Below, piece after piece: positions 38,632 through 57,199 of a DNA stretch of 64,000 nt (positions are counted from its first letter, which is position 1; each line of letters begins with the position of its first letter). The DNA comes from an uncultured virus (IMG/VR IMGVR_UViG_3300027416_000239) (Duplodnaviria > Heunggongvirae > Uroviricota > Caudoviricetes), in the IMG/VR virus record IMGVR_UViG_3300027416_000239. One strand, 5' to 3'. The position numbers and the translations under genes were made by a program. The notes under the pieces were generated by a model. That model did not search any database. It saw only the letters and a list, made by a program, of their open reading frames with translations, and had not been told where the DNA came from.

Positions 38632-38705
38632 TGCGCCTACTAGGGTTTGAACCTAGGACCTGCCGATTATGAGTCGGATGCTCTAACCAACTGAGCTATA
38701 AGCGC
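38632..38705 (-). tRNA. tRNA-CAT (Ile2-like, or Met)
   Basis: GCGCTTATAGCTCAGTTGGTTAGAGCATCCGACTCATAATCGG...GGTTCAAAC; cloverleaf. Confidence 0.9.
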
Positions 38706-38711
38706 AATTTG

Positions 38712-38794
38712 TTGGAAGGGACAGATTCGAACTGCCGTACCCGTAAGGGAGCAGATTTACAGTCTGCCGGTTTTAACCACTCACCCACCTTCCA
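38712..38794 (-). tRNA. tRNA-Tyr(GTA)
   Basis: GCAGACTGTAAATCTGC anticodon arm, long variable arm, GTTCGAAT. Confidence 0.9.
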
Positions 38795-38889
38795 GTAAAA
38801 AAGAATAGGCGTTAGGATTCGGCGTCCTATTAACAGCAACTTACTTTTACCGCTGCAGCGGTATGCTGAACTATTAGTCCTACTCTCTG

Positions 38890-38962
38890 AGCCTCCTGTC
38901 GGACTCGAACCAACGACCTACTGATTACAAATCAGTGGCTCTACCAACTGAGCTAAGGAGGC
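38890..38962 (-). tRNA. tRNA-Thr(TGT)
   Basis: GCCTCCTTAGCTCAG...CTGATTTGTAATCAG...GGTTCGAGTCC. Confidence 0.92.
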
Positions 38963-39091
38963 TTATAGGGGAGGTTATCAATGAGACGCCGTCCGGTAGG
39001 CGTACTCCCCACTCACTATCTTTTCCCGAAAGTCAACCACCGAAGTGGATTTAGAGGCTAGACTCAGTCTCTTTGCACACGTCTGGGTTCT

Positions 39092-39256
39092 TTATTTAGT
39101 AATCTTTAGGTAAAGCATATGGTAGTTAAACATCCAGAGTAGTGCGCTGAAGATCCAGCCAGCATCTGAATAGTCGCCAACTGATACGTTTAAACCAATA
39201 CCTACAATGTAAAGCAGGTACATTACCGGAAAGAAGTACTTAATGATTGTTTTCAT
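39092..39256 (-). CDS. Small membrane protein (54 aa, within tRNA array)
   Basis: Hand-translated MKTIIKYFFPVMYLLYIVGIGL...; 2 hydrophobic segments. Confidence 0.55.
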   Translation of the reverse strand: MKTIIKYFFPVMYLLYIVGIGLNVSVGDYSDAGWIFSALLWMFNYHMLYLKITK

Positions 39257-39278
39257 GTTTAAAACATTTAATAATTAG

Positions 39279-39351
39279 TCGGGATGACAGGACTCGAACC
39301 TCCAACCCCCTGGTCCCAAACCAGGTGCGCTACCACTTGCGCCACATCCCG
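39279..39351 (-). tRNA. tRNA-Pro(TGG)
   Basis: CGGGATG acceptor, CCTGGTTTGGGACCAGG arm, GGTTCGAGT. Confidence 0.9.
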
Positions 39352-39443
39352 AGCTGGTTGTTAGAGGACAACCATAACCTGCCACTGTAGCTCCACTCTA
39401 TCTTTAAATGGAATAGAGAAACCAGATGCATCTGACTGCGTAG

Positions 39444-39517
39444 TGATCCGAGAAGGATTCGAACCTTCGACCGACAGCTTAGAAGGCTGTTGCTCTATCC
39501 AGCTGAGCTATCGGACC
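39444..39517 (-). tRNA. tRNA-Arg(TCT)
   Basis: ACAGCCTTCTAAGCTGT arm, GGTTCGAATCC. Confidence 0.92.
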
Positions 39518-39634
39518 ATATTATAGAGAGGCTTCACTCCTTTAGCGCGCTTACAGCATCAGAGTCCGTACCTCAGGTTTTAAACGACCCGTCGACCGTA
39601 CCTTTGGATTTTACCTTTTCCTCCTCTCATTATG

Positions 39635-39716
39635 TGCGGATGAAGGGACTCGAACCCCCACGCGATTAAGCACCAGATCCTAAGTCTGGCGTGGCTACCA
39701 ATTACACCACATCCGC
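39635..39716 (-). tRNA. tRNA-Leu(TAG)
   Basis: CCAGACTTAGGATCTGG arm, variable arm, GGTTCGAGTCCC. Confidence 0.92.
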
Positions 39717-39762
39717 ATTCTATCTATCCAACATGTCAAAGAACCGTATATGGGTTTCCGTG

Positions 39763-39848
39763 TACTACTGGCCGGAATCGAACCGGCACGACCATCACTG
39801 GCCAAGGGATTTTAAGTCCCTCGTGTCTACCTATTTCACCACAGTAGC
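39763..39848 (-). tRNA. tRNA-Leu(TAA)
   Basis: AGGGACTTAAAATCCCT arm, variable arm, GGTTCGATTCC. Confidence 0.92.
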
Positions 39849-46739: not shown

Positions 46740-47654
46740 TTATTGACGTAAAGTTTTTCTCATTCGTTTACCCGAATCAGTAAACCATCCTGGGATCATA
46801 TCTTTATGTGTAGCTCGAATAGGATTAATATCCAATCCACCACGACGTGTATATAAACATGCTACCATAAGCTTCTCAGGTTGATAGGCTTGCTGAAGGT
46901 GAGTAAATACCATCTCACAGATCTCTTCATGGAAGTGAGATACTGTACGGTGACTAACGATATACTTGGCTAGTGACTCAAGCTTAATTGAGTTATGACC
47001 TTGCATATGGATGTAGATATCACCCCAGTCAGGCTGGTTAGTTACTCGGCAGTTACTACGTAGCAAGTTAGAACTTACTTTAGTTGTAACAGACATTGGA
47101 AGATTGCCGCCAATCTCAAGCTGACCTGCATCAGACTTAAAGGCTGTAAACTCAATGTTGTCAAGGTTTACTGTTGCACCTAAGTCTGTAAAGCCATCAA
47201 ACTCAAACTCTGGAGTGTATGTATTGCCGAAGAAGGTACAGGTTACATTTCCTCCTAGTAGGTCAGTTAGGTCTTTAGCTACTGTTGTTTCAATCTCCTT
47301 GATACACTCCTTAGCTGTCTGACCCATCGGAGTCATATTCAAAGAGTTCAAGTATAATTTGATAGACTTTGACTCAACGTGAAACTCTGTATTAGCTGGG
47401 CATACAATCTTTAACATACCTGCTACAGGCTGACCTTTTTTAGTAATAGCTGAAACTTCATAAGCGTTCCAAGCATCTACTCCTACGAATGGAAGATTAC
47501 TCTCCTCAATTCCGTAAGCTTCTCGGTTTAAATAACGAGGTACTGCTACTAGCAACTCAGCATTGTACTGATCTGAGTAACCTTCTCCACCTACCTTACC
47601 GAGGTGTTTACCAGCAATCTCAACGACTGCATTGTAGTTCTTTACTTCTTCCAT
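46740..47654 (-). CDS. queF: 7-cyano-7-deazaguanine reductase (bimodular QueF)
   Basis: ESKSIKLYLNS QueF motif, CRVTNQPDWG, FHEE, YTRRGGLDINP. Confidence 0.92.
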   Translation of the reverse strand: MEEVKNYNAVVEIAGKHLGKVGGEGYSDQYNAELLVAVPRYLNREAYGIEESNLPFVGVDAWNAYEVSAITKKGQPVAGMLKIVCPANTEFHVESKSIKLYLNSLNMTPMGQTAKECIKEIETTVAKDLTDLLGGNVTCTFFGNTYTPEFEFDGFTDLGATVNLDNIEFTAFKSDAGQLEIGGNLPMSVTTKVSSNLLRSNCRVTNQPDWGDIYIHMQGHNSIKLESLAKYIVSHRTVSHFHEEICEMVFTHLQQAYQPEKLMVACLYTRRGGLDINPIRATHKDMIPGWFTDSGKRMRKTLRQ

Positions 47655-48173
47655 TTACTTTATGTATTTTAAAATTTGATCTACTCGCTGCAATGGTGAG
47701 CCAGTAACAGTTAAATAATGACGGTCAGTTAAATCGAGTTGATACTTAAACTCTTCATCAATAATCTTTCTCCAAGCTTCATCTACACTGCGCTGACCAT
47801 CATCCACAGCATCGAATTCAATAGGGAAATAAATATAGTGCGTATACTCATCCTGCACTCTAGTCCAAGTATCTTCAATAAAGTCTAAGCCTTGAGAAGA
47901 TAAAGCAGGCATATGCTTAGAGTATACAACTAAGTCTAGATAACAACGATCTAGAATCAAACTATGAGGCTTAAGCAAAGCCTCTAAGTGAAAAGAAGAA
48001 ATAGCTAACTGAGTCTCAGTAGTACCTGCTTCGTTAATAGGAAAGCCAAACTTAGCTACCGTACGAGTACTTTCGTTAATAAACTCATACTTAGGTAGTT
48101 TAGCTTTCAATAACTCATACACAGTAGTCTTACCAGTACTACTAGCTCCTACTAATGCAATTCGTCTAACCAT
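47655..48173 (-). CDS. P-loop nucleotide kinase (AAA_28/dNMP-kinase-like)
   Basis: GASSTGKTT, LDRCYLD, DDGQR. Confidence 0.75.
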   Translation of the reverse strand: MVRRIALVGASSTGKTTVYELLKAKLPKYEFINESTRTVAKFGFPINEAGTTETQLAISSFHLEALLKPHSLILDRCYLDLVVYSKHMPALSSQGLDFIEDTWTRVQDEYTHYIYFPIEFDAVDDGQRSVDEAWRKIIDEEFKYQLDLTDRHYLTVTGSPLQRVDQILKYIK

Positions 48174-48712
48174 AGTTTATTATGTAAAAATTCTATCCAC
48201 ATCTCTACTGATGTGTCATGTAAGATACGAAAAATATCGTTCTTAGGCAACATCTTATGTATACTTTCTCGCTCCACTAGAACTTCTCCTTCATCTACTC
48301 CGGCAGTTACTTTGTGAATAACACAGCCAGCAGTCTTATAGTTACCTTCCCAGGCTCTATATTGAGGATCTTTTCCTTTTAGGTCTGGATATTTAGTAAT
48401 CAATCCTGGATGTCCGTTATAGATTTCATAGCGATTACAGATAGAAGCAGGCATTACTCTTAACCATCCGTGTAAAGTTACAACAGGGTTATCACTTATT
48501 GCACTCATCAGCCATACAAGCTCATGCTCCTCAGGTCTATTCTGAGTATACTTTAATAGGTCTGTAGGAATCTCAGGATGTATAGTACGTAAATGAGAAG
48601 GCCTGATATTAGTAATAATAAGGTCAGGCCAGCGACCTAACTGCTTACTAACCTGAACAATCTCAGATCCAGTCTGACTAAAGAATGCTATCCACGGACG
48701 AGTTGCTACCAT
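48152..48712 (-). CDS. PurN-like formyltransferase (candidate preQ1 formyltransferase, DpdN-like)
   Basis: FFSQTGS, LHGWLRV, NGHPG, GCVIHKV, VDEGEV. Confidence 0.8.
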   Translation of the reverse strand: MVATRPWIAFFSQTGSEIVQVSKQLGRWPDLIITNIRPSHLRTIHPEIPTDLLKYTQNRPEEHELVWLMSAISDNPVVTLHGWLRVMPASICNRYEIYNGHPGLITKYPDLKGKDPQYRAWEGNYKTAGCVIHKVTAGVDEGEVLVERESIHKMLPKNDIFRILHDTSVEMWIEFLHNKLWLDELH

Positions 48713-49505
48713 GTGCGAACCATCTAAAGCGTTGAACATTATAAACTGCTGAAGTAACCTGCTCAGAGGTAGGAGTCATATTAATCATCTCAAATAACTT
48801 GATTGATGCCTTATCCCACAACCCTTGATCTTTATACTCGATTCCCAACAAACCGTGTACTACTGGGTTAGAAGTATCTAGTGAGTAGATCCAATCGTAG
48901 TCTTTATAGAAAGCAAACTCTTGAGGAAGTCCACAGCCTAGTAGGTGGTGAGGGATATCTGGGTTGATTACTCCATCACGTAACATCTTACCTAAGAGCA
49001 CAACTCTGCCTAGCATCCAGCTAACATACTTGTTAGGGTGTGGTACGAGCTGTTCGTAATAACTGTAATCGAAAGAGATAGCCACCATATCTACCTTTGC
49101 TATATTAATCATGTAGTCATAGCAATTGATAAGCTCAGAGTAAGTCTTTCCCTGTAGTACTCCAATCTTTTTACTAGGTGCTGCTAGATGATCTGCATAC
49201 TTAAAGTTCCACTCAGCCATATTAGCACAAGTACGCTTTACATTCTCTAATGCATCAGGTACGATGTACCAGGTAGGCTTTAAATAATCAATCCAGAAAG
49301 CAAAGCGTTCTGAATCAAAAGCTTTTCCTAATTCAAAGATAGAGTTATCGAGAATAATCTCTCGTCCTTTATCTCGTGCTTCTACAAACTTATCTAAATA
49401 AGTTTCGTTCTCTTCAAAGAGATGTACTAAAGCGTAATCATAATCCGTATACTGCTGAATAGTGTCAAAGCTAGCAATAGGACTCTCGTGTGCAATCTTA
49501 ACCAT
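48678..49505 (-). CDS. TGT/DpdA-like TIM-barrel protein (candidate deazaguanine transglycosylase)
   Basis: ILDNS, VPD, VLQG, HHLLG and SLDTS resemble the TGT/DpdA DSG, PD, QG, HxLG and SxDS motifs; que-gene context. Confidence 0.65.
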   Translation of the reverse strand: MVKIAHESPIASFDTIQQYTDYDYALVHLFEENETYLDKFVEARDKGREIILDNSIFELGKAFDSERFAFWIDYLKPTWYIVPDALENVKRTCANMAEWNFKYADHLAAPSKKIGVLQGKTYSELINCYDYMINIAKVDMVAISFDYSYYEQLVPHPNKYVSWMLGRVVLLGKMLRDGVINPDIPHHLLGCGLPQEFAFYKDYDWIYSLDTSNPVVHGLLGIEYKDQGLWDKASIKLFEMINMTPTSEQVTSAVYNVQRFRWFAHGSNSSVDSIL

Positions 49506-49695
49506 TGGCGTTTCCTAAATCGTTAAATAACTTGTTTAATTCTAACATACTATCTTGAAGTTTACCTAAATTATCTTCAAGCTCTTTAGCGCTCTTGATC
49601 TGCAAGGCTTCCTCTACTACTTCTAAAGGTACAACCCAGCGTTGTAGGTCTTCTAAGAAGATACTATTTTGTTCTACCAGTTCTTTTGGACTCAT
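49498..49695 (-). CDS. Hypothetical protein
   Basis: 65-aa operonic ORF. Confidence 0.6.
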   Translation of the reverse strand: MSPKELVEQNSIFLEDLQRWVVPLEVVEEALQIKSAKELEDNLGKLQDSMLELNKLFNDLGNANG

Positions 49696-50198
49696 TGCTT
49701 AGCGTTTTCGATTTCTTCTGGAGTAAAGAACTGCTCAAGATTAGGAGCGAAGTAGTTAATAGATTTCATAACCTTATCGTCCGCTTTGCGATAAACAACA
49801 TAACGGTTTCCCACCTTACGGAAGTAACACTCGCCGTGCTGTTGAGAACGGAGAGCAATAGTCTCTTCTGCTTCTTCTACAGTCGCACAGCTCTTAGACA
49901 TATTCGATGCCTGTACCTCTCGGTAAGCTGGTACGATCTTATTCTTCAATCCAAACACCATGGTAGCATTTCCAATAGCTACGTAAAGTAGATCGCAGAT
50001 AGCATCTAGTACTTCTACAATATCTTTCTCTTCAATAGCGTGTGCTAGTTCGTCAGTCTCTTCTTTAATAAAATCTACTACGAAGTTAGTAAGTTTCTTA
50101 TCATTAGGAATAATAGGAGTGTAATTGTTCGGCTTACCGAACGTATCGTTGAAGATCTCTACTTCGTCGATAAATGGGACACTTTTTGCTCGTTTCAT
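49692..50198 (-). CDS. MazG-like/PRA-PH (all-alpha) NTP pyrophosphohydrolase
   Basis: EETDE...EVLDAICDLLYV...EVQASNMSK. Confidence 0.85.
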   Translation of the reverse strand: MKRAKSVPFIDEVEIFNDTFGKPNNYTPIIPNDKKLTNFVVDFIKEETDELAHAIEEKDIVEVLDAICDLLYVAIGNATMVFGLKNKIVPAYREVQASNMSKSCATVEEAEETIALRSQQHGECYFRKVGNRYVVYRKADDKVMKSINYFAPNLEQFFTPEEIENAKQ

Positions 50199-50905
50199 TT
50201 GCATGCGTAACCTTTAACAAATTCATAAAATTCTGCTCGTGCTGAGTCTTCGTACATAAAGCTACCTGATAGCTTAGAAGTCTTCATTGACGCACCAGCG
50301 TGTTTAGTACCGCGGCATGATACACAATTGTGAGTAGCTTCTACCATAACTGCTACACCTACATTACCTTCACAAACAGTATGAACTGCATTATGAATAG
50401 CAACAGTAAGCTGCTCTTGAATAGCACCTCTACGTCCGAAATGCTCTACAATACGATTGAGCTTAGATAGACCGATTACCTTACCTCCAGGACCTGGAAT
50501 GTAAGCAATATGAACTCGACCTTGAATAGTCTGGTGGTGATGCGAACACATCGAGGTCAAAGGAATATTACCCTCAAATACAATACCATCATAACCATCA
50601 GCAGGGAAGGCTGTGATCTCAGGCATAGGATTGAATCGTCCTGCCCATAAGTCGTTTACATAAGCCTTAGCTACTCGACGAGGAGTATCAGATGAGTTAG
50701 GGTCATCACGCCAGTCACATCCTAGAGCATCTAGGAATTCTCCGAATGCCTTTGCAGCATTCTCAATAATAGTATGCTTCTCTTGATCTGTTAAGTGCAT
50801 AGAGTTCATAGAATGAACTTTAAACTTCTCAGCCAGTTGAGAAGAGACACCATTAGCGAACCCGGCTTGAGCGAGTTCTACATCATAACGTTTTTTATCT
50901 GCCAT
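50195..50905 (-). CDS. folE: GTP cyclohydrolase I
   Basis: TPRRVAK, SMCSHH, GLSKLNR, QEQL, HNCVSCRG. Confidence 0.95.
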   Translation of the reverse strand: MADKKRYDVELAQAGFANGVSSQLAEKFKVHSMNSMHLTDQEKHTIIENAAKAFGEFLDALGCDWRDDPNSSDTPRRVAKAYVNDLWAGRFNPMPEITAFPADGYDGIVFEGNIPLTSMCSHHHQTIQGRVHIAYIPGPGGKVIGLSKLNRIVEHFGRRGAIQEQLTVAIHNAVHTVCEGNVGVAVMVEATHNCVSCRGTKHAGASMKTSKLSGSFMYEDSARAEFYEFVKGYACK

Positions 50906-50908
50906 ATA

Positions 50909-50940
50909 ATTTGTTTTTTTAGGTGGTGCTTCGACACCTC
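50909..50940 (-). ncRNA. Candidate preQ1-I riboswitch aptamer upstream of folE
   Basis: AGGUG-UCGAAGCAC-CACCU-AAAAAAAC; 5-bp P1, UCGnAG..AC loop, A-rich tail; lies between promoter and ATG. Confidence 0.65.
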
Positions 50941-50962
50941 TTATTAATATACGAAAACTATT

Positions 50963-51469
50963 TCAGAGTGCAAACACACTTCTGTAATTTCTTGCATAAC
51001 CTTTATCGTTATCCATTCCAAAGCCTACTACCCATTCATCCTTGATAGTGAATGCATGATAGGAAGGTACTGGGGGTATCCTAGAAGTTTCTCTAGTCAG
51101 TAGAGTAACAATATTAATCGAGGCTGGGTGTTTGACCTGAAGGTATTCAATCACAGCATCCATTGTATTACCCGAATCGTAAATGTCGTCTACGATATAG
51201 ACGTGCTTTCCTTTAACAGGCGTCTCTAAGTCTTTGGTGATCTGAATATCACCTTGTTTCTTTTTACTGACGTATGATCTTATTCTCATAAAATCACATT
51301 CTACGTCTACTGTAATGTTGCGTACTAGGTCTGCATAGAACATAAATGCTCCATTCAATAACCCTACCATAACGATTGGAGTTTTATCTCCATTGTGCTC
51401 TGCTGAGATCTTCTTAGCGATGATCTTAGTTTGGATATCAATATCCTTTGCGTCAATTAACTGTTGCAT
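50963..51469 (-). CDS. hpt: Hypoxanthine/guanine phosphoribosyltransferase
   Basis: LLNGAFMFYADL, SY, IVDDIYDSGNT, WVVGFGMD. Confidence 0.9.
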   Translation of the reverse strand: MQQLIDAKDIDIQTKIIAKKISAEHNGDKTPIVMVGLLNGAFMFYADLVRNITVDVECDFMRIRSYVSKKKQGDIQITKDLETPVKGKHVYIVDDIYDSGNTMDAVIEYLQVKHPASINIVTLLTRETSRIPPVPSYHAFTIKDEWVVGFGMDNDKGYARNYRSVFAL

Positions 51470-54029: not shown

Positions 54030-54806
54030 TTATACTTCTCTCTTAGTATCGTAGGCAATGATGTGATCACGTCCGGTCATATTGTAACCGTGCTCGGCAC
54101 ACATCTCAAATACGATTGGGTACATTTCAATTAAAGTCTCACGAGTATCACCTGCAGGCATAACAAAAGTCTTGTCTTTAGGAATATTCATCTCAACCCT
54201 AAATGCTTCAATCTCTACTAGATTCGCTGCGCTACCGTCCCATACCGGCTTAAAGTGGTAATCAGTATGATAGTCCAAAGTCTGACGGATAGCATCTTTG
54301 TTGATACGGAACTTGTTATGTTGCTTAATCATCTTCTCATCTGCAATAGCGCCTTGAGGTGTAACAGCTCCTACTACGGGTACGCTATTAGAGAACTTAG
54401 GAGATAGAGAGATAAGATCAAGAGGATAGTCCGTCTCAAGGAAGTGAGAACCTTCAGTCTCAATAGTAACAATAATACCTCTTTCTTTAGCAAAGTGAGT
54501 AATCTCATTTACTAAGGCTGGGTGCATTGTTGGGCTACCTCCTGTTAGCATCATCTCCTTTACGTGAGGATTCTCATCGTAAATCTTAATAATATCGTTA
54601 AATGAATAACCACCTTTCTCTGGATGGATAGAGGTATACCAGCTATCACACCAACCTCCTTCACCGAAGTAGCAGCGGTGAGTACATCCTGTAGTACGTA
54701 CAGCGATAGTAGGACGTCCAAAACGACTACCCTCTGATTGTACACATCGGTAAAGCTCTACAATCGGCAGTACCTTATTATAATCTTCAATTCTCTTAAG
54801 CGCCAT
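54030..54806 (-). CDS. queE: 7-carboxy-7-deazaguanine synthase (radical SAM)
   Basis: VQSEG, RTTGCTHRC...WCDS, LTGGSP, IETEG, SLSPK; start MALKR. Confidence 0.9.
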   Translation of the reverse strand: MALKRIEDYNKVLPIVELYRCVQSEGSRFGRPTIAVRTTGCTHRCYFGEGGWCDSWYTSIHPEKGGYSFNDIIKIYDENPHVKEMMLTGGSPTMHPALVNEITHFAKERGIIVTIETEGSHFLETDYPLDLISLSPKFSNSVPVVGAVTPQGAIADEKMIKQHNKFRINKDAIRQTLDYHTDYHFKPVWDGSAANLVEIEAFRVEMNIPKDKTFVMPAGDTRETLIEMYPIVFEMCAEHGYNMTGRDHIIAYDTKREV

Positions 54807-55254
54807 AGATTGCTGAGTTTTTGTGGTTCTCCATAAATTTAACTTTAATGACCTTAACTCGGCCGTCTGTCTCTGTCTGTACGAAGTCATTTAGCTTGTG
54901 GTAAAGAAATTCAGCAAATTTCTCTGCACCTACTGCCTCTACTACTCGTAACTGAATAACGCCTCTGTCGGCCATATCTCTGAAGTTATCTAGTTCAGGA
55001 TCGTCTTCTGCTACAACTACAGTATGATCGAACATATGCTCCATCCATTCTTTAGGTTGCATACCGTCGATCAGGTTCTTAGCTCGCTTCATACCTCCGA
55101 AGTCCCATACCCAGTTACGGTGATCGAGATCTCCTTCAAACGTTACTTCAAACTCTACATCATAGCCGTGTAGGTACTGACAGTGTGTAGTATTCGCTTT
55201 CCATTGACGGAAGCAAGTACTAAAGCCATCAAACTTCTTTCTTGACTTATACAT
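54796..55254 (-). CDS. queD: 6-carboxytetrahydropterin synthase
   Basis: HCQYLHGY, WDFG, FDH, AEKFA, E...NSA. Confidence 0.9.
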   Translation of the reverse strand: MYKSRKKFDGFSTCFRQWKANTTHCQYLHGYDVEFEVTFEGDLDHRNWVWDFGGMKRAKNLIDGMQPKEWMEHMFDHTVVVAEDDPELDNFRDMADRGVIQLRVVEAVGAEKFAEFLYHKLNDFVQTETDGRVKVIKVKFMENHKNSAIYGA

Positions 55255-55507
55255 TTGTAAAATTATTATATTGTTCAATATAGTGACTTAATGGCTTAGC
55301 GCCAACTGTACGAGCAAATTCTTTTCCAGAATCATCAATCAGTACTACAGTAGGTACACTGCGGACTGTGTATTCCATCGTTAGGAGCTCTTCCGTATCG
55401 ATGTTAATTTTTTCTACAGCAATTCCTTCTGCTGCTACTTTTTCCATTGTTGGACCTAACATTCTACAAGGACCGCACCAAGGTGCTGAGAAATACAAAT
55501 ACTTCAT
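55247..55507 (-). CDS. Thioredoxin
   Basis: WCGPC; VRSVPT. Confidence 0.92.
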   Translation of the reverse strand: MKYLYFSAPWCGPCRMLGPTMEKVAAEGIAVEKINIDTEELLTMEYTVRSVPTVVLIDDSGKEFARTVGAKPLSHYIEQYNNFTNV

Positions 55508-55710
55508 ACTAATTCTTCGATTATGCCGACTGCCTCACTCAAGACCAGTACCACCATTGCTGTTGGGATATCAACAATAAGCAGTGCGTAACCAAGAATA
55601 CGGACTCCGGATTTAATAAATGAGATAATTTGATGCCATTTCTGATCAGGCATCTTTTCAATGTTCTTACTTTTCGGAAGAACAGGCTCTACTAATAACT
55701 GTTTTTTCAT
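55504..55710 (-). CDS. Small membrane protein
   Basis: Hydrophobic C-terminal half. Confidence 0.6.
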   Translation of the reverse strand: MKKQLLVEPVLPKSKNIEKMPDQKWHQIISFIKSGVRILGYALLIVDIPTAMVVLVLSEAVGIIEELV

Positions 55711-56300
55711 TCTACTATAACTTTAATTGTATCGTTTACTATTATCTGAGTACCTAGATCGTAGTTATAACGCGTTCTTGTGAAGACATTAATCGTATCT
55801 CCCACCATCTCTTCAAACACCAGTACTTCACACCGGGGCTGGTATGTGTGCATAGCATTCACAAAGTTTGTACTTCCAAACGTATAACCTACTGCATTTA
55901 TAATGTAGTTAGGATTTGTAATATAGATTGTAGTATCTCCTGTTGAGATAGGGTAATTAAAGCTTGGGGAAGTATATTGGGAAGTAAATGGAGAGTACAG
56001 AGGTATTTGCATAGCAATGGTATCAAATACATACCAGGTATCGCTATCATATACTACTTGAAGTAGCGGTACTCCATTTATAACATATTGAGGATGTAGG
56101 GAATCTAACTGACCGATAACCTGGAAGTAATTTATACCTGAATATTGTAAATGCCAGTATCCGTCTTGATAATAAGTTCCAGGATGTTGAATAGTATCTA
56201 CTCTATGAATAGTAGTACATTCCTGACAAGGTTCAGGAACATAGGGCTCAATCGTTTCACAAGCCCAGAGCAGAGGTAATAATAGTAGTAACTTTTTCAT
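55707..56300 (-). CDS. Lipoprotein of unknown function
   Basis: MKKLLLLLPLLWAC lipobox. Confidence 0.7.
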   Translation of the reverse strand: MKKLLLLLPLLWACETIEPYVPEPCQECTTIHRVDTIQHPGTYYQDGYWHLQYSGINYFQVIGQLDSLHPQYVINGVPLLQVVYDSDTWYVFDTIAMQIPLYSPFTSQYTSPSFNYPISTGDTTIYITNPNYIINAVGYTFGSTNFVNAMHTYQPRCEVLVFEEMVGDTINVFTRTRYNYDLGTQIIVNDTIKVIVE

Positions 56301-56331
56301 CCGGTGTTTTTATAGTGGTGCTCCGACACTC
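56301..56331 (-). ncRNA. Candidate preQ1-I riboswitch aptamer heading the lipoprotein-trx-queD-queE unit
   Basis: AGUG-UCGGAGCAC-CACU-AUAAAAAC-ACCGG-AUG; the loop can pseudoknot with CCGG next to the start codon. Confidence 0.65.
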
Positions 56332-56374: not shown

Positions 56375-57199
56375 TTAATTTGCGTGTGCTGCTAAAACTT
56401 TTTCAACATGCTCACGTGCTACCTCCCAGCTCACTGGGCCGGTCTCATCAGCGTACGCTACAGGATCAGGTCGTCCTAGCTTAATAAAAGCTTCAATACG
56501 CTCTACTGAAGAAGCTGATTTGTAGTCTGAGTACCAAGTCCAGGCATTAGTCTCTGGACGGTGATAGTACTTGATTGGCTTATAAGAGGTGTTAGTACGC
56601 TTATAAACTTCATCAAAGTCTATTCCTAGCTTCTCACATAATACCAGTCCGTCTTCTAGAATAGTAAACTTATCGCCTTCAAGATAAGGAGTCCAATAAG
56701 ATACGCGCTCAGCGTCCCAGTTACCAGTGCGGAAAGCAGCGTCATCTGCATCCCGAAATTCCTGTCGGCAGTCCGGATAGATCGCATGATCACCAGCATG
56801 AATGCCCAACGCAATGGAAGTTTCTTCCTGAGTTTCATTTGCAATAGAAAGTGCTACAGCTTGAGAAATTGAACTGAAGATTTTGTTTCGGTTCGGTACA
56901 ACAGTAGCTTTCATATTCTCTTCTGCGTAATGACCTTCAGGTACTTCAGCACCACCTGTTACTAGAGCCGAGTTGAGCAGGTCAACCAAGCCGTCTAGTT
57001 TGATTACTCGGTAATTAACAGAGTGACCGTTATCACTCAAGTACTTTACCAACTCTTGAGCTCTTTCAAGCTCTACTCTGTGCTTTTGACCGTAATCAAA
57101 AGACATTGCTGTTACTGTATCAAACTCTTTAAGAGCTTTTAGAAGTAACGTAGAGGAGTCCATCCCTCCTGAAAGACTAACAACAACGTGTTTTGCCAT
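56375..57199 (-). CDS. queC: 7-cyano-7-deazaguanine synthase
   Basis: SLSGGMDS, FDYGQKH, VPNRN, YPDCR. Confidence 0.93.
   Translation of the reverse strand: MAKHVVVSLSGGMDSSTLLLKALKEFDTVTAMSFDYGQKHRVELERAQELVKYLSDNGHSVNYRVIKLDGLVDLLNSALVTGGAEVPEGHYAEENMKATVVPNRNKIFSSISQAVALSIANETQEETSIALGIHAGDHAIYPDCRQEFRDADDAAFRTGNWDAERVSYWTPYLEGDKFTILEDGLVLCEKLGIDFDEVYKRTNTSYKPIKYYHRPETNAWTWYSDYKSASSVERIEAFIKLGRPDPVAYADETGPVSWEVAREHVEKVLAAHAN

Follow-up and report, generated by a model that had tools for sequence, protein, structure and literature searches.

The closest described relatives of the element examined here are the class I preQ1 (preQ1-I) riboswitches, in particular their type II form, exemplified by the T. 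tengcongensis (Tte) aptamer. According to the review PMC11625349, the class I pocket comprises a specificity C that directly adjoins the P1 3' strand on its 5' side and, in type II, follows an A; U6, which reads the N9-H of the ligand in known aptamers; an adenine of L3; and a closing G-C floor whose G contacts the methylamine. The review also gives the Tte ceiling as C7-G11-C30 and describes a P2 with canonical pairs at only two of four steps. Here we analyzed a leader element in 64,000 nucleotides of DNA (the window) from an uncultured marine Caudoviricetes virus (IMG/VR record IMGVR_UViG_3300027416_000239). The element, a short hairpin followed by an A-rich tract, precedes folE (copy A) and, a second time, an operon containing queD and queE (copy B), both on the minus strand. 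A preliminary description of the window had read copy A as a preQ1-I-like riboswitch of type II.

Viral riboswitches are rarely reported. In the full-text literature, no paper was found on a riboswitch in phage 7-deazaguanine clusters or linking one to phage DNA hypermodification (supplements of the bioRxiv preprint lay outside this coverage), and the Cui/Hutinet preprint on the immuto cluster contains neither "riboswitch" nor "regulat." The closest named phage to the window is vB_FspM_immuto_2-6A (immuto), with 73.3% DNA identity across folE. As stated in preprint 10.1101/2023.04.13.536721, formyl-dPreQ1 replaces deoxyguanosine (dG) in immuto DNA, and the dG peak is gone.

The comparisons below indicate that the leader element is very probably a real, conserved, pathway-specific cis-acting RNA. 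On balance, its features lead us to favor a miniaturized, preQ1-I-like switch, confined to phages, that would turn translation OFF in response to a putative ligand and thereby exert feedback on 7-deazaguanine synthesis. By its scores, however, the motif is not a member of preQ1-I.

Results

A covarying hairpin with a conserved loop in two phage leaders

Copy A is a hairpin of 4 to 5 bp (P1) followed by an A tract (L3) and a tail C that lies 7 nt short of the folE AUG (Table 1). The order promoter, hairpin, A tract, and folE on the minus strand was found, in text and in position, as the preliminary description had given it. That description also counted five P1 pairs; the hairpin is real and its stem covaries, but only four pairs are conserved across the motif family, the fifth, A-U, being peculiar to the window.

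Covariation in the folE leaders of related phages had been suggested as a check on the reading, and it was clearly present. An unbiased set of loci was retrieved by FolE protein alone in three scans (238 locus rows, among which some contigs recur). The motif occurred in 95 of these rows in 22 distinct forms, and 87 of the 88 stem cells were paired. Compensatory changes were observed at three of the four stem pairs (UA in 9 forms, GC in 8, and AU in 4 at one pair; GC in 21 and AU in 1 at another; UA in 13 and AU in 9 at the third). None of 500 shuffles attained the observed pairing or covariation score, and only 29 to 59% of cells paired in slid controls. In a broader set of 50 distinct copies, gathered partly by motif pattern, all 200 stem cells were paired. 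The closing pair was G-C in 22/22 and 50/50 forms while the other three pairs varied. In the immuto leader the motif is retained, with GGUG/CACC replaced by the compensatory GGAG/CUCC.

The loop, with the consensus U, C, G, n, A, G, n, A, C, is much more conserved than the stem. Conservation is complete or reaches at least 90% at the U that opens the loop, the loop C, the A-G, the A-C just 5' of the second P1 strand, the A run, and the tail C. The exceptions in the loop are a change of C to U (L030/L341 and L329), one form with an extra U, a loop ending in UUC (L039), and UCACAG in the outliers L528 and G503. L3 is 7 nt long in 39 of the 50 copies (range, 6 to 9), and the AUG mostly follows the tail C by 5 to 11 nt.

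The distance from the motif to the AUG is the constrained one, whereas that to the promoter box varies. This bears on the possibility that the element acts as DNA, namely, as an inverted repeat beside the promoter that binds a dimeric transcription factor. The motif does begin 2 to 14 nt after a TATATTA-like box, and no G-U pairs were seen, so that every stem is also a perfect DNA palindrome. The half-sites would be just 4 bp, however, and the most conserved part is an asymmetric 9-nt spacer together with a one-sided A tract; moreover, motif and gene share the same orientation in every case. We regard such a DNA-level operator as very improbable.

A chance resemblance within an A/T-rich leader would be in keeping with the noise-level Rfam score and the fold z-score of −1.08 described below, but it is refuted by simulations and by the covariation, which exceeded 500 of 500 shuffles. 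A descriptor (4-bp stem closing with G-C; loop UCGN[AG]G, 1 to 6 nt, and AC; up to 3 nt; A4-8; C), whose loop position 9 and stem length had been relaxed post hoc, matched the window twice, at copies A and B, and matched none of 300 sequences simulated with a first-order Markov model. R1, a covariance model built from the phage motif, likewise found exactly copy B (45.5 bits) and copy A (43.8 bits) in the window, with the next match at 12.3 bits, and the same two sites only in the whole 124,656-base record. As the motif also recurs ahead of the same genes in dozens of phage contigs, chance can be set aside with near certainty.

Pocket positions shared with bacterial type II aptamers

For comparison, bacterial examples from RF00522 searches of Bacillota genomes (gathering score, 39 bits) were used in place of the T. 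tengcongensis sequence of the preliminary description. Two kinds of match were obtained. The first, of the "GGUUCG" kind, scored 43 to 55 bits. The second comprised 33 loci with 18 distinct cores, a loop of 10 to 12 nt reading UCGC[AG]G...AC, and a tail of the form U-N-A-rich-C-AAGG; its representatives precede QueT, a Vut_1/YhhQ-type transporter, or QueF. Judged by their sequences, the loci of the second kind are T. tengcongensis-like type II aptamers. All 33 (L264-L304) scored 25.5 to 37.8 bits, below the RF00522 gathering score, which reveals a practical gap: the cutoff misses the Tte-like type II aptamers sampled here.

In a joint alignment, the phage copies and the bacterial loci match column for column through G-U-C-G-n-A-G, and every pocket position named in PMC11625349 is present and conserved in the phage motif. 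The specificity C is invariant (50/50 and 22/22), and the A preceding it is conserved in at least 90% of forms, the U-C of L039 being the type I form. The first loop U, at the U6 position, is invariant. As for the bases of the ceiling, the G is invariant and the loop C at least 90% conserved, while the tail C was part of the search expressions; none of them varies so as to reveal pairing. Three further features of preQ1-I were found. P1 covaries, although with four conserved pairs rather than the five of RF00522 and the bacterial examples. L3 is A-rich, mostly 7 nt long, compared with 8 to 10 nt next to a 5-bp P1 in bacteria. Both copies lie in leaders of 7-deazaguanine genes, the folE and queD-queE operons. 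Those parts of the type II reading that concern pocket bases, covariation, the two 7-deazaguanine leaders, and a link to QueF (see below) stood; those that concern model scores and the P2 helix did not.

Model scores, P2, and folding

Several results weigh against the riboswitch reading, beginning with the Infernal search with the Rfam preQ1 model that the preliminary description had proposed. RF00522 scored copy A at 9.8 bits against a gathering score of 39 (E of 4.2 on a 46-nt slice, 2.7 for the entire record). A spurious Histone3 match scored about as high, at 9.9 bits, and copy B gave no RF00522 match at an E of ≤10. Nothing was found at gathering in the window, nor at an E of ≤10 on 171 nt. 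Despite its 9.8 bits, copy A was the best RF00522 match in the whole phage record. Models of bacterial type II aptamers alone behaved similarly. Two were built, R2 from 9 aptamers and R3 from 19; the MAFFT alignment of the 18 bacterial cores had put two groups out of register and was rebuilt through R2. R2 gave 7.8 bits, at rank 4, in the window, while bacterial members outside its training half scored 30 to 36 bits. R3 gave copy A 9.5 bits (E of 1.6) and left copy B unreported; copy A was the top R3 match in the window, in an alignment that deletes one pair, two loop bases, and one tail base. In the other direction, R1 scored true bacterial sites at just 9.7 to 16 bits, among noise.

The layout also departs from that of preQ1-I. 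A P2 helix beyond one G-C pair is unsupported, since the candidate registers pair in 16 to 42 of the 50 copies and show no covariation. None of these 50 copies has a C at loop position 9 (A, U, or G instead), although the two outlier copies read UCACAG; the tail has no GG partner, and the second canonical P2 pair, between loop C9 and a tail G, is missing. Apart from a GGAG in L039, no Shine-Dalgarno (SD)-like sequence was found in the phage leaders. L2 is 3 nt and the loop 9 nt long, shorter than in all 18 bacterial cores, and we know of no natural aptamer this small that binds its ligand. Given the Rfam, R2, R3, and R1 scores and the missing P2, the motif is not a member by any score-based test. 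Its resemblance to type II, as read from the alignments, is confined to the pocket bases and the layout.

Folding energies were unremarkable (z-scores of −1.6 to +1.2). At copy A, the ViennaRNA minimum free energy structure is a register-shifted hairpin, GGUGU-CGAA-GCACC (50926-50938, minus strand; −6.2 kcal/mol; z-score, −1.08), which competes with P1 and would conceal the pocket bases. This hairpin is found in GUG-stem lineages whose loop ends in GCAC and is not conserved, being absent in the GGAG, UGAG, and UGUG stem lineages. Since there was no thermodynamic signal and the alternative was lineage specific, folding was dropped as evidence in either direction. No alternative structure that would hide the AUG, as in an ON switch, was conserved among five leaders.

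The noise-level scores given by true preQ1-I covariance models and the unsupported P2 helix would fit a translational operator at which an RNA-binding protein of phage or host recognizes the hairpin loop and the A tail and represses or activates both 7-deazaguanine operons in step, the likeness to preQ1-I being vestigial or coincidental. The behavior of copy B also speaks for such an operator. Across about 27 distinct flanking contexts it hardly varies, even in the stem, though the neighboring small protein is just 32 to 59% identical, and near-invariance across such hosts would also suit recognition by a protein. For an unrelated protein site, however, it would be an unlikely coincidence that seven loop positions, the closing pair, and the tail C agree with the type II pocket, and the stem of copy A changes freely around a fixed loop, as is typical of an RNA fold. 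Nor was a candidate regulator found; the small "EELV" protein encoded under copy B was rejected as a motif-specific regulator, since phages that lack the motif encode it too. We therefore consider a protein operator unlikely.

A pocket-less hairpin between queD and queE

A set of 80 loci was retrieved by QueD protein. The copy B leader is present in 10 of them (R1 scores of 46 to 60 bits), while 46 carry a different hairpin between queD and queE (for example, L542, 1371-1416). The latter has the AGUG/CACU stem of copy B and a similar U-A-rich tail, here U-A6-UU. Its loop is 10 nt long, A-rich, and variable (AAUGAAAAAC in 27 loci, AAUAAAAAAC in 9, ACUGUAAAAC in 7, AUUAAAAAAC in 2, and AACGAAAAAC in 1). 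A tail C and equivalents of U6, C7, and G11 are all missing from this hairpin, and its 5' strand either overlaps the final codons of queD (Y-S-E-stop) or is a duplicate of them. The two elements are mutually exclusive (0/80 loci with both), and the queD-queE hairpin may be a coupling element or a decayed aptamer. The contrast is that pocket bases are fixed where they are present, whereas the loop drifts where the pocket is absent.

The persistence of this scaffold in the same operon without pocket bases is a further point for a protein operator. It also leaves room for a ligand-free role of hairpin and A tract and has somewhat lowered our confidence in a riboswitch. In such a role, the 5' hairpin would protect the mRNA or keep the A-rich tract open for SD-independent initiation, and nothing would be sensed. 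A variable hairpin in a similar place before queE in 46/80 loci is compatible with this, as are the A-rich tracts that generally precede AUG in these phages and the A/T-rich character of folE leaders that lack the motif. A purely structural leader leaves three observations unexplained, namely, a loop that stays fixed across lineages with differing stems, the occurrence of only two such leaders in a 124.7-kb genome, both at 7-deazaguanine operons, and the occurrence of the motif only in records that encode QueF. On these grounds we judge it improbable.

Distribution of the motif

The motif was found only before folE or queD-queE operons, the folE-type copy standing ahead of folE in every case. 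In 16 of 17 loci examined, copy B is followed by queD, either directly (L105 and L135) or after one small open reading frame (ORF), and QueE comes next after QueD wherever these loci extend far enough; the 17th locus resembles the window, with queD further downstream. The link to QueF was seen in a small sample, 10 related phage records of 94 to 100% completeness. All six records with the motif encode QueF, and of the four near-complete records without it, three lack QueF and one (G502) has it. Record G502, which is complete, encodes QueF, and has no motif copy, is a point against the riboswitch. The FolE of L386 is 87% identical to that of the motif-bearing L039, yet its leader is plain. In these close relatives, L386 and G502, the motif was lost or never gained.

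A strict 18-base pattern gave 42 matches over 185,579 species genomes. Forty of these were chance-like, lying in G+C-rich or coding sequence with no promoter context and with mostly unpaired stems; the other two lie on one 5.9-kb contig with 32 to 35% G+C and phage gene order. R1 found no true copy in 151 Bacteroidia genomes (a 26.7-bit match was rejected on account of its 30-nt loop), and RF00522 gave nothing in them at an E of ≤0.01. Within what was searched, the motif is restricted to phages. Streptococcus phage Dp-1, considered as a possible carrier of preQ1 riboswitches, gave no Rfam match at gathering in its first 50 kb.

Transcription units and neighboring genes

The positions of the two copies and of their surroundings are collected in Table 1. 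TTTG and TATATTAA form a candidate promoter of the folE leader. The TATATTAA box is kept in the immuto leader and is present upstream of nearly all motif copies; a sigma-70-style scan reports TTTGCA-17-TATATT at this site, and the motif-less folE leaders of relatives share a TTTG-N19-TATATTA layout. Copy A sits in the gap between the phosphoribosyltransferase gene and folE, where only 57 nt separate the end of the upstream gene from the folE AUG, and no terminator was found on its strand. Copy A could therefore also act within read-through transcripts. At copy B, QueC and a putative terminator hairpin close the upstream unit, so that copy B would open a new one.

Table 1. Positions of the two motif copies, their parts, and the adjacent genes in the window
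Feature	Position	Strand	Basis or remark
Copy A, whole motif	50913..50939	-	Sequence reading, covariation, covariance model R1
Copy A, P1 5' strand (A)GGUG	50939-50935	-	Sequence reading
Copy A, 9-nt loop UCGAAGCAC	50934-50926	-	Sequence reading
Copy A, P1 3' strand CACC(U)	50925-50921	-	Sequence reading
Copy A, A7 tract (L3)	50920-50914	-	Tail C at 50913
Spacer AAAUUAU and folE AUG	50903..50912	-	Spacer (7 nt) 50912-50906, then AUG 50905-50903
TTTG, candidate -33 promoter element	50971..50974	-	Within 3' end of upstream phosphoribosyltransferase gene
TATATTAA, candidate -7 promoter box	50944..50951	-	19 nt from TTTG
HPRT-like phosphoribosyltransferase	50963-51469	-	
folE, GTP cyclohydrolase I, first gene under copy A	50195..50905	-	PF01227, E 1.6e-43
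Same-strand genes after folE	46740..50204	-	Pfam
MazG-like PRA-PH	49692-50204	-	Pfam; then 65-aa ORF
DpdA	48678-49505	-	65% identity to annotated immuto DpdA
Formyltransferase	48152-48739	-	Pfam
AAA_28 kinase-like	47655-48173	-	Pfam
QueF	46740-47654	-	Pfam
Copy B, whole motif	56306..56330	-	Pattern search of window, R1
Copy B, P1 AGUG with CACU	56330-56327 with 56317-56314	-	
Copy B, loop UCGGAGCAC	56326-56318	-	
Copy B, L3 AUAAAAA	56313-56307	-	Tail C 56306, then ACCGG, AUG at 56300
Copy B operon	54030..56300	-	Pfam, sequence reading
197-aa lipoprotein-like ORF, first gene under copy B	55707-56300	-	N-terminus MKKLLLLLPLLWAC...
68-aa EELV small protein	55504-55710	-	
Thioredoxin	55247-55507	-	
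QueD/PTPS	54796-55278	-	
QueE radical SAM	54030-54890	-	
QueC	56375-57199	-	phrog_1550, E 1.2e-42
G+C-rich hairpin then T-rich run, putative terminator	56370-56351	-	Sequence reading

As had been described, the element heads folE and the modification genes downstream of it: folE was identified by its PF01227 match, and DpdA and QueF follow on the same strand. The gene set of the window is the 7-deazaguanine DNA-modification set of immuto-type Flavobacterium phages, and the gene order downstream of folE is the same as in immuto. The HPRT-like phosphoribosyltransferase, a MazG-like pyrophosphohydrolase, and the AAA_28 kinase-like protein are embedded in this modification cluster.

The 197-amino-acid (aa) ORF has no family match and stands first under copy B in this lineage only; in other lineages the copy B operon opens with the small EELV protein or with QueD. 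The EELV family (67 to 107 aa) has an invariant C-terminal half, P-D-x-K-x-H-Q..SF.KS..R...L..E..GI.EELV, in an alignment (A6) of the window protein, L542 397-660, and 14 further loci. It has no Pfam or PHROG match. Its gene lies before those for thioredoxin, QueD, and QueE in many phages, with or without a copy B leader, and the family may be an unrecognized player in the 7-deazaguanine pathway. Elsewhere in the window, seven tRNA genes are clustered at 38632-39848 on the minus strand (55.5 to 71.1 bits on RF00005).

Discussion

A proposed model for feedback by the leader element

In the model that we favor, both leaders would be miniaturized relatives, about 25 to 27 nt long, of the class I type II preQ1 aptamer. 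A 7-deazaguanine, most likely preQ1 and possibly preQ0, would pair with the invariant C that ends the loop, directly ahead of the second P1 strand, and stack on the invariant closing G-C pair; it would have to be the free base because U6 reads N9-H in known aptamers, as PMC11625349 has it. For the ceiling, the invariant loop G would pair with the tail C, with the loop C alongside, and the A tract (L3) would dock in the P1 groove. The folded knot would end 5 to 11 nt before the AUG, burying the A-rich tract and blocking initiation. In SD-poor hosts of the Bacteroidota type, an A-rich tract of this kind would be where ribosomes load, a view that derives from work on Flavobacterium translation. 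With that tract buried, translation of folE-...-dpdA-...-queF and of the queD-queE operon would fall as the free base accumulates, a negative feedback that would match precursor supply to DNA modification.

More tentatively, and with somewhat less confidence than in the switch itself, we suggest that these leaders may contain the smallest natural riboswitch aptamers known. They would represent a phage-only offshoot of preQ1-I, about 25 to 27 nt in length, that has shed the P2 helix and the SD link and that gates translation by folding away an A-rich ribosome-loading tract. In this offshoot, the shortening of L2 may have shifted the specificity of the pocket toward preQ0 or formyl-preQ1. If the RNA binds a 7-deazaguanine, it would set a new lower size limit for a natural aptamer, show riboswitch action without an SD sequence, and mean that a phage meters a precursor needed in very large amounts. 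The virus would gain metabolite feedback over a pathway that replaces every G in its DNA. Because copy A is present in a phage-host pair that is in culture, vB_FspM_immuto_2-6A and Flavobacterium sp. LMO8, the claim is directly testable.

Comparison with known systems

The type II preQ1-I aptamers come closest to the phage motif. In both, a hairpin with a closing G-C carries a loop that starts with U-C-G, has A/G-G at positions 10 and 11, and ends in A-C, and an A-rich L3 ending in C-A-A stands just before the start codon of a 7-deazaguanine gene. They differ in that the phage P1 has four conserved pairs instead of five and the phage loop 9 nt instead of 10 to 12; the phage motif also lacks the second canonical P2 pair and the SD link and was found only in phage DNA. 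The layout is shared with RF00522 as a whole, types I and III included, whose consensus also reads ..GG-UUCG..-..CC..-AUAAAAAACUAAGG, but copy A reaches 9.8 bits where that family demands 39, and copy B goes unreported at an E of ≤10.

On a 49-kb viral contig (L467), positions 901-929 hold a type II preQ1-I aptamer of canonical form and full size, followed by a gene for a Vut_1/YhhQ-type transporter. Its loop is UCGCAGUGAC and its tail A6-C-AAGG. Phage or prophage DNA can thus carry preQ1-I aptamers, with the caveat that this is a single contig and may be host derived. Unlike the phage motif, this aptamer has the full size, a 6-bp P1, and an SD-type tail, and the gene under its control encodes a transporter, not a biosynthetic enzyme. 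The RegA, gp32, and gp43 operators of phage T4 offer a further parallel, in which a short hairpin or A/U-rich element by the start codon coordinates several phage genes; those operators, however, are bound by protein and have no small-molecule pocket signature, whereas the leaders described here carry the bases of the type II pocket.

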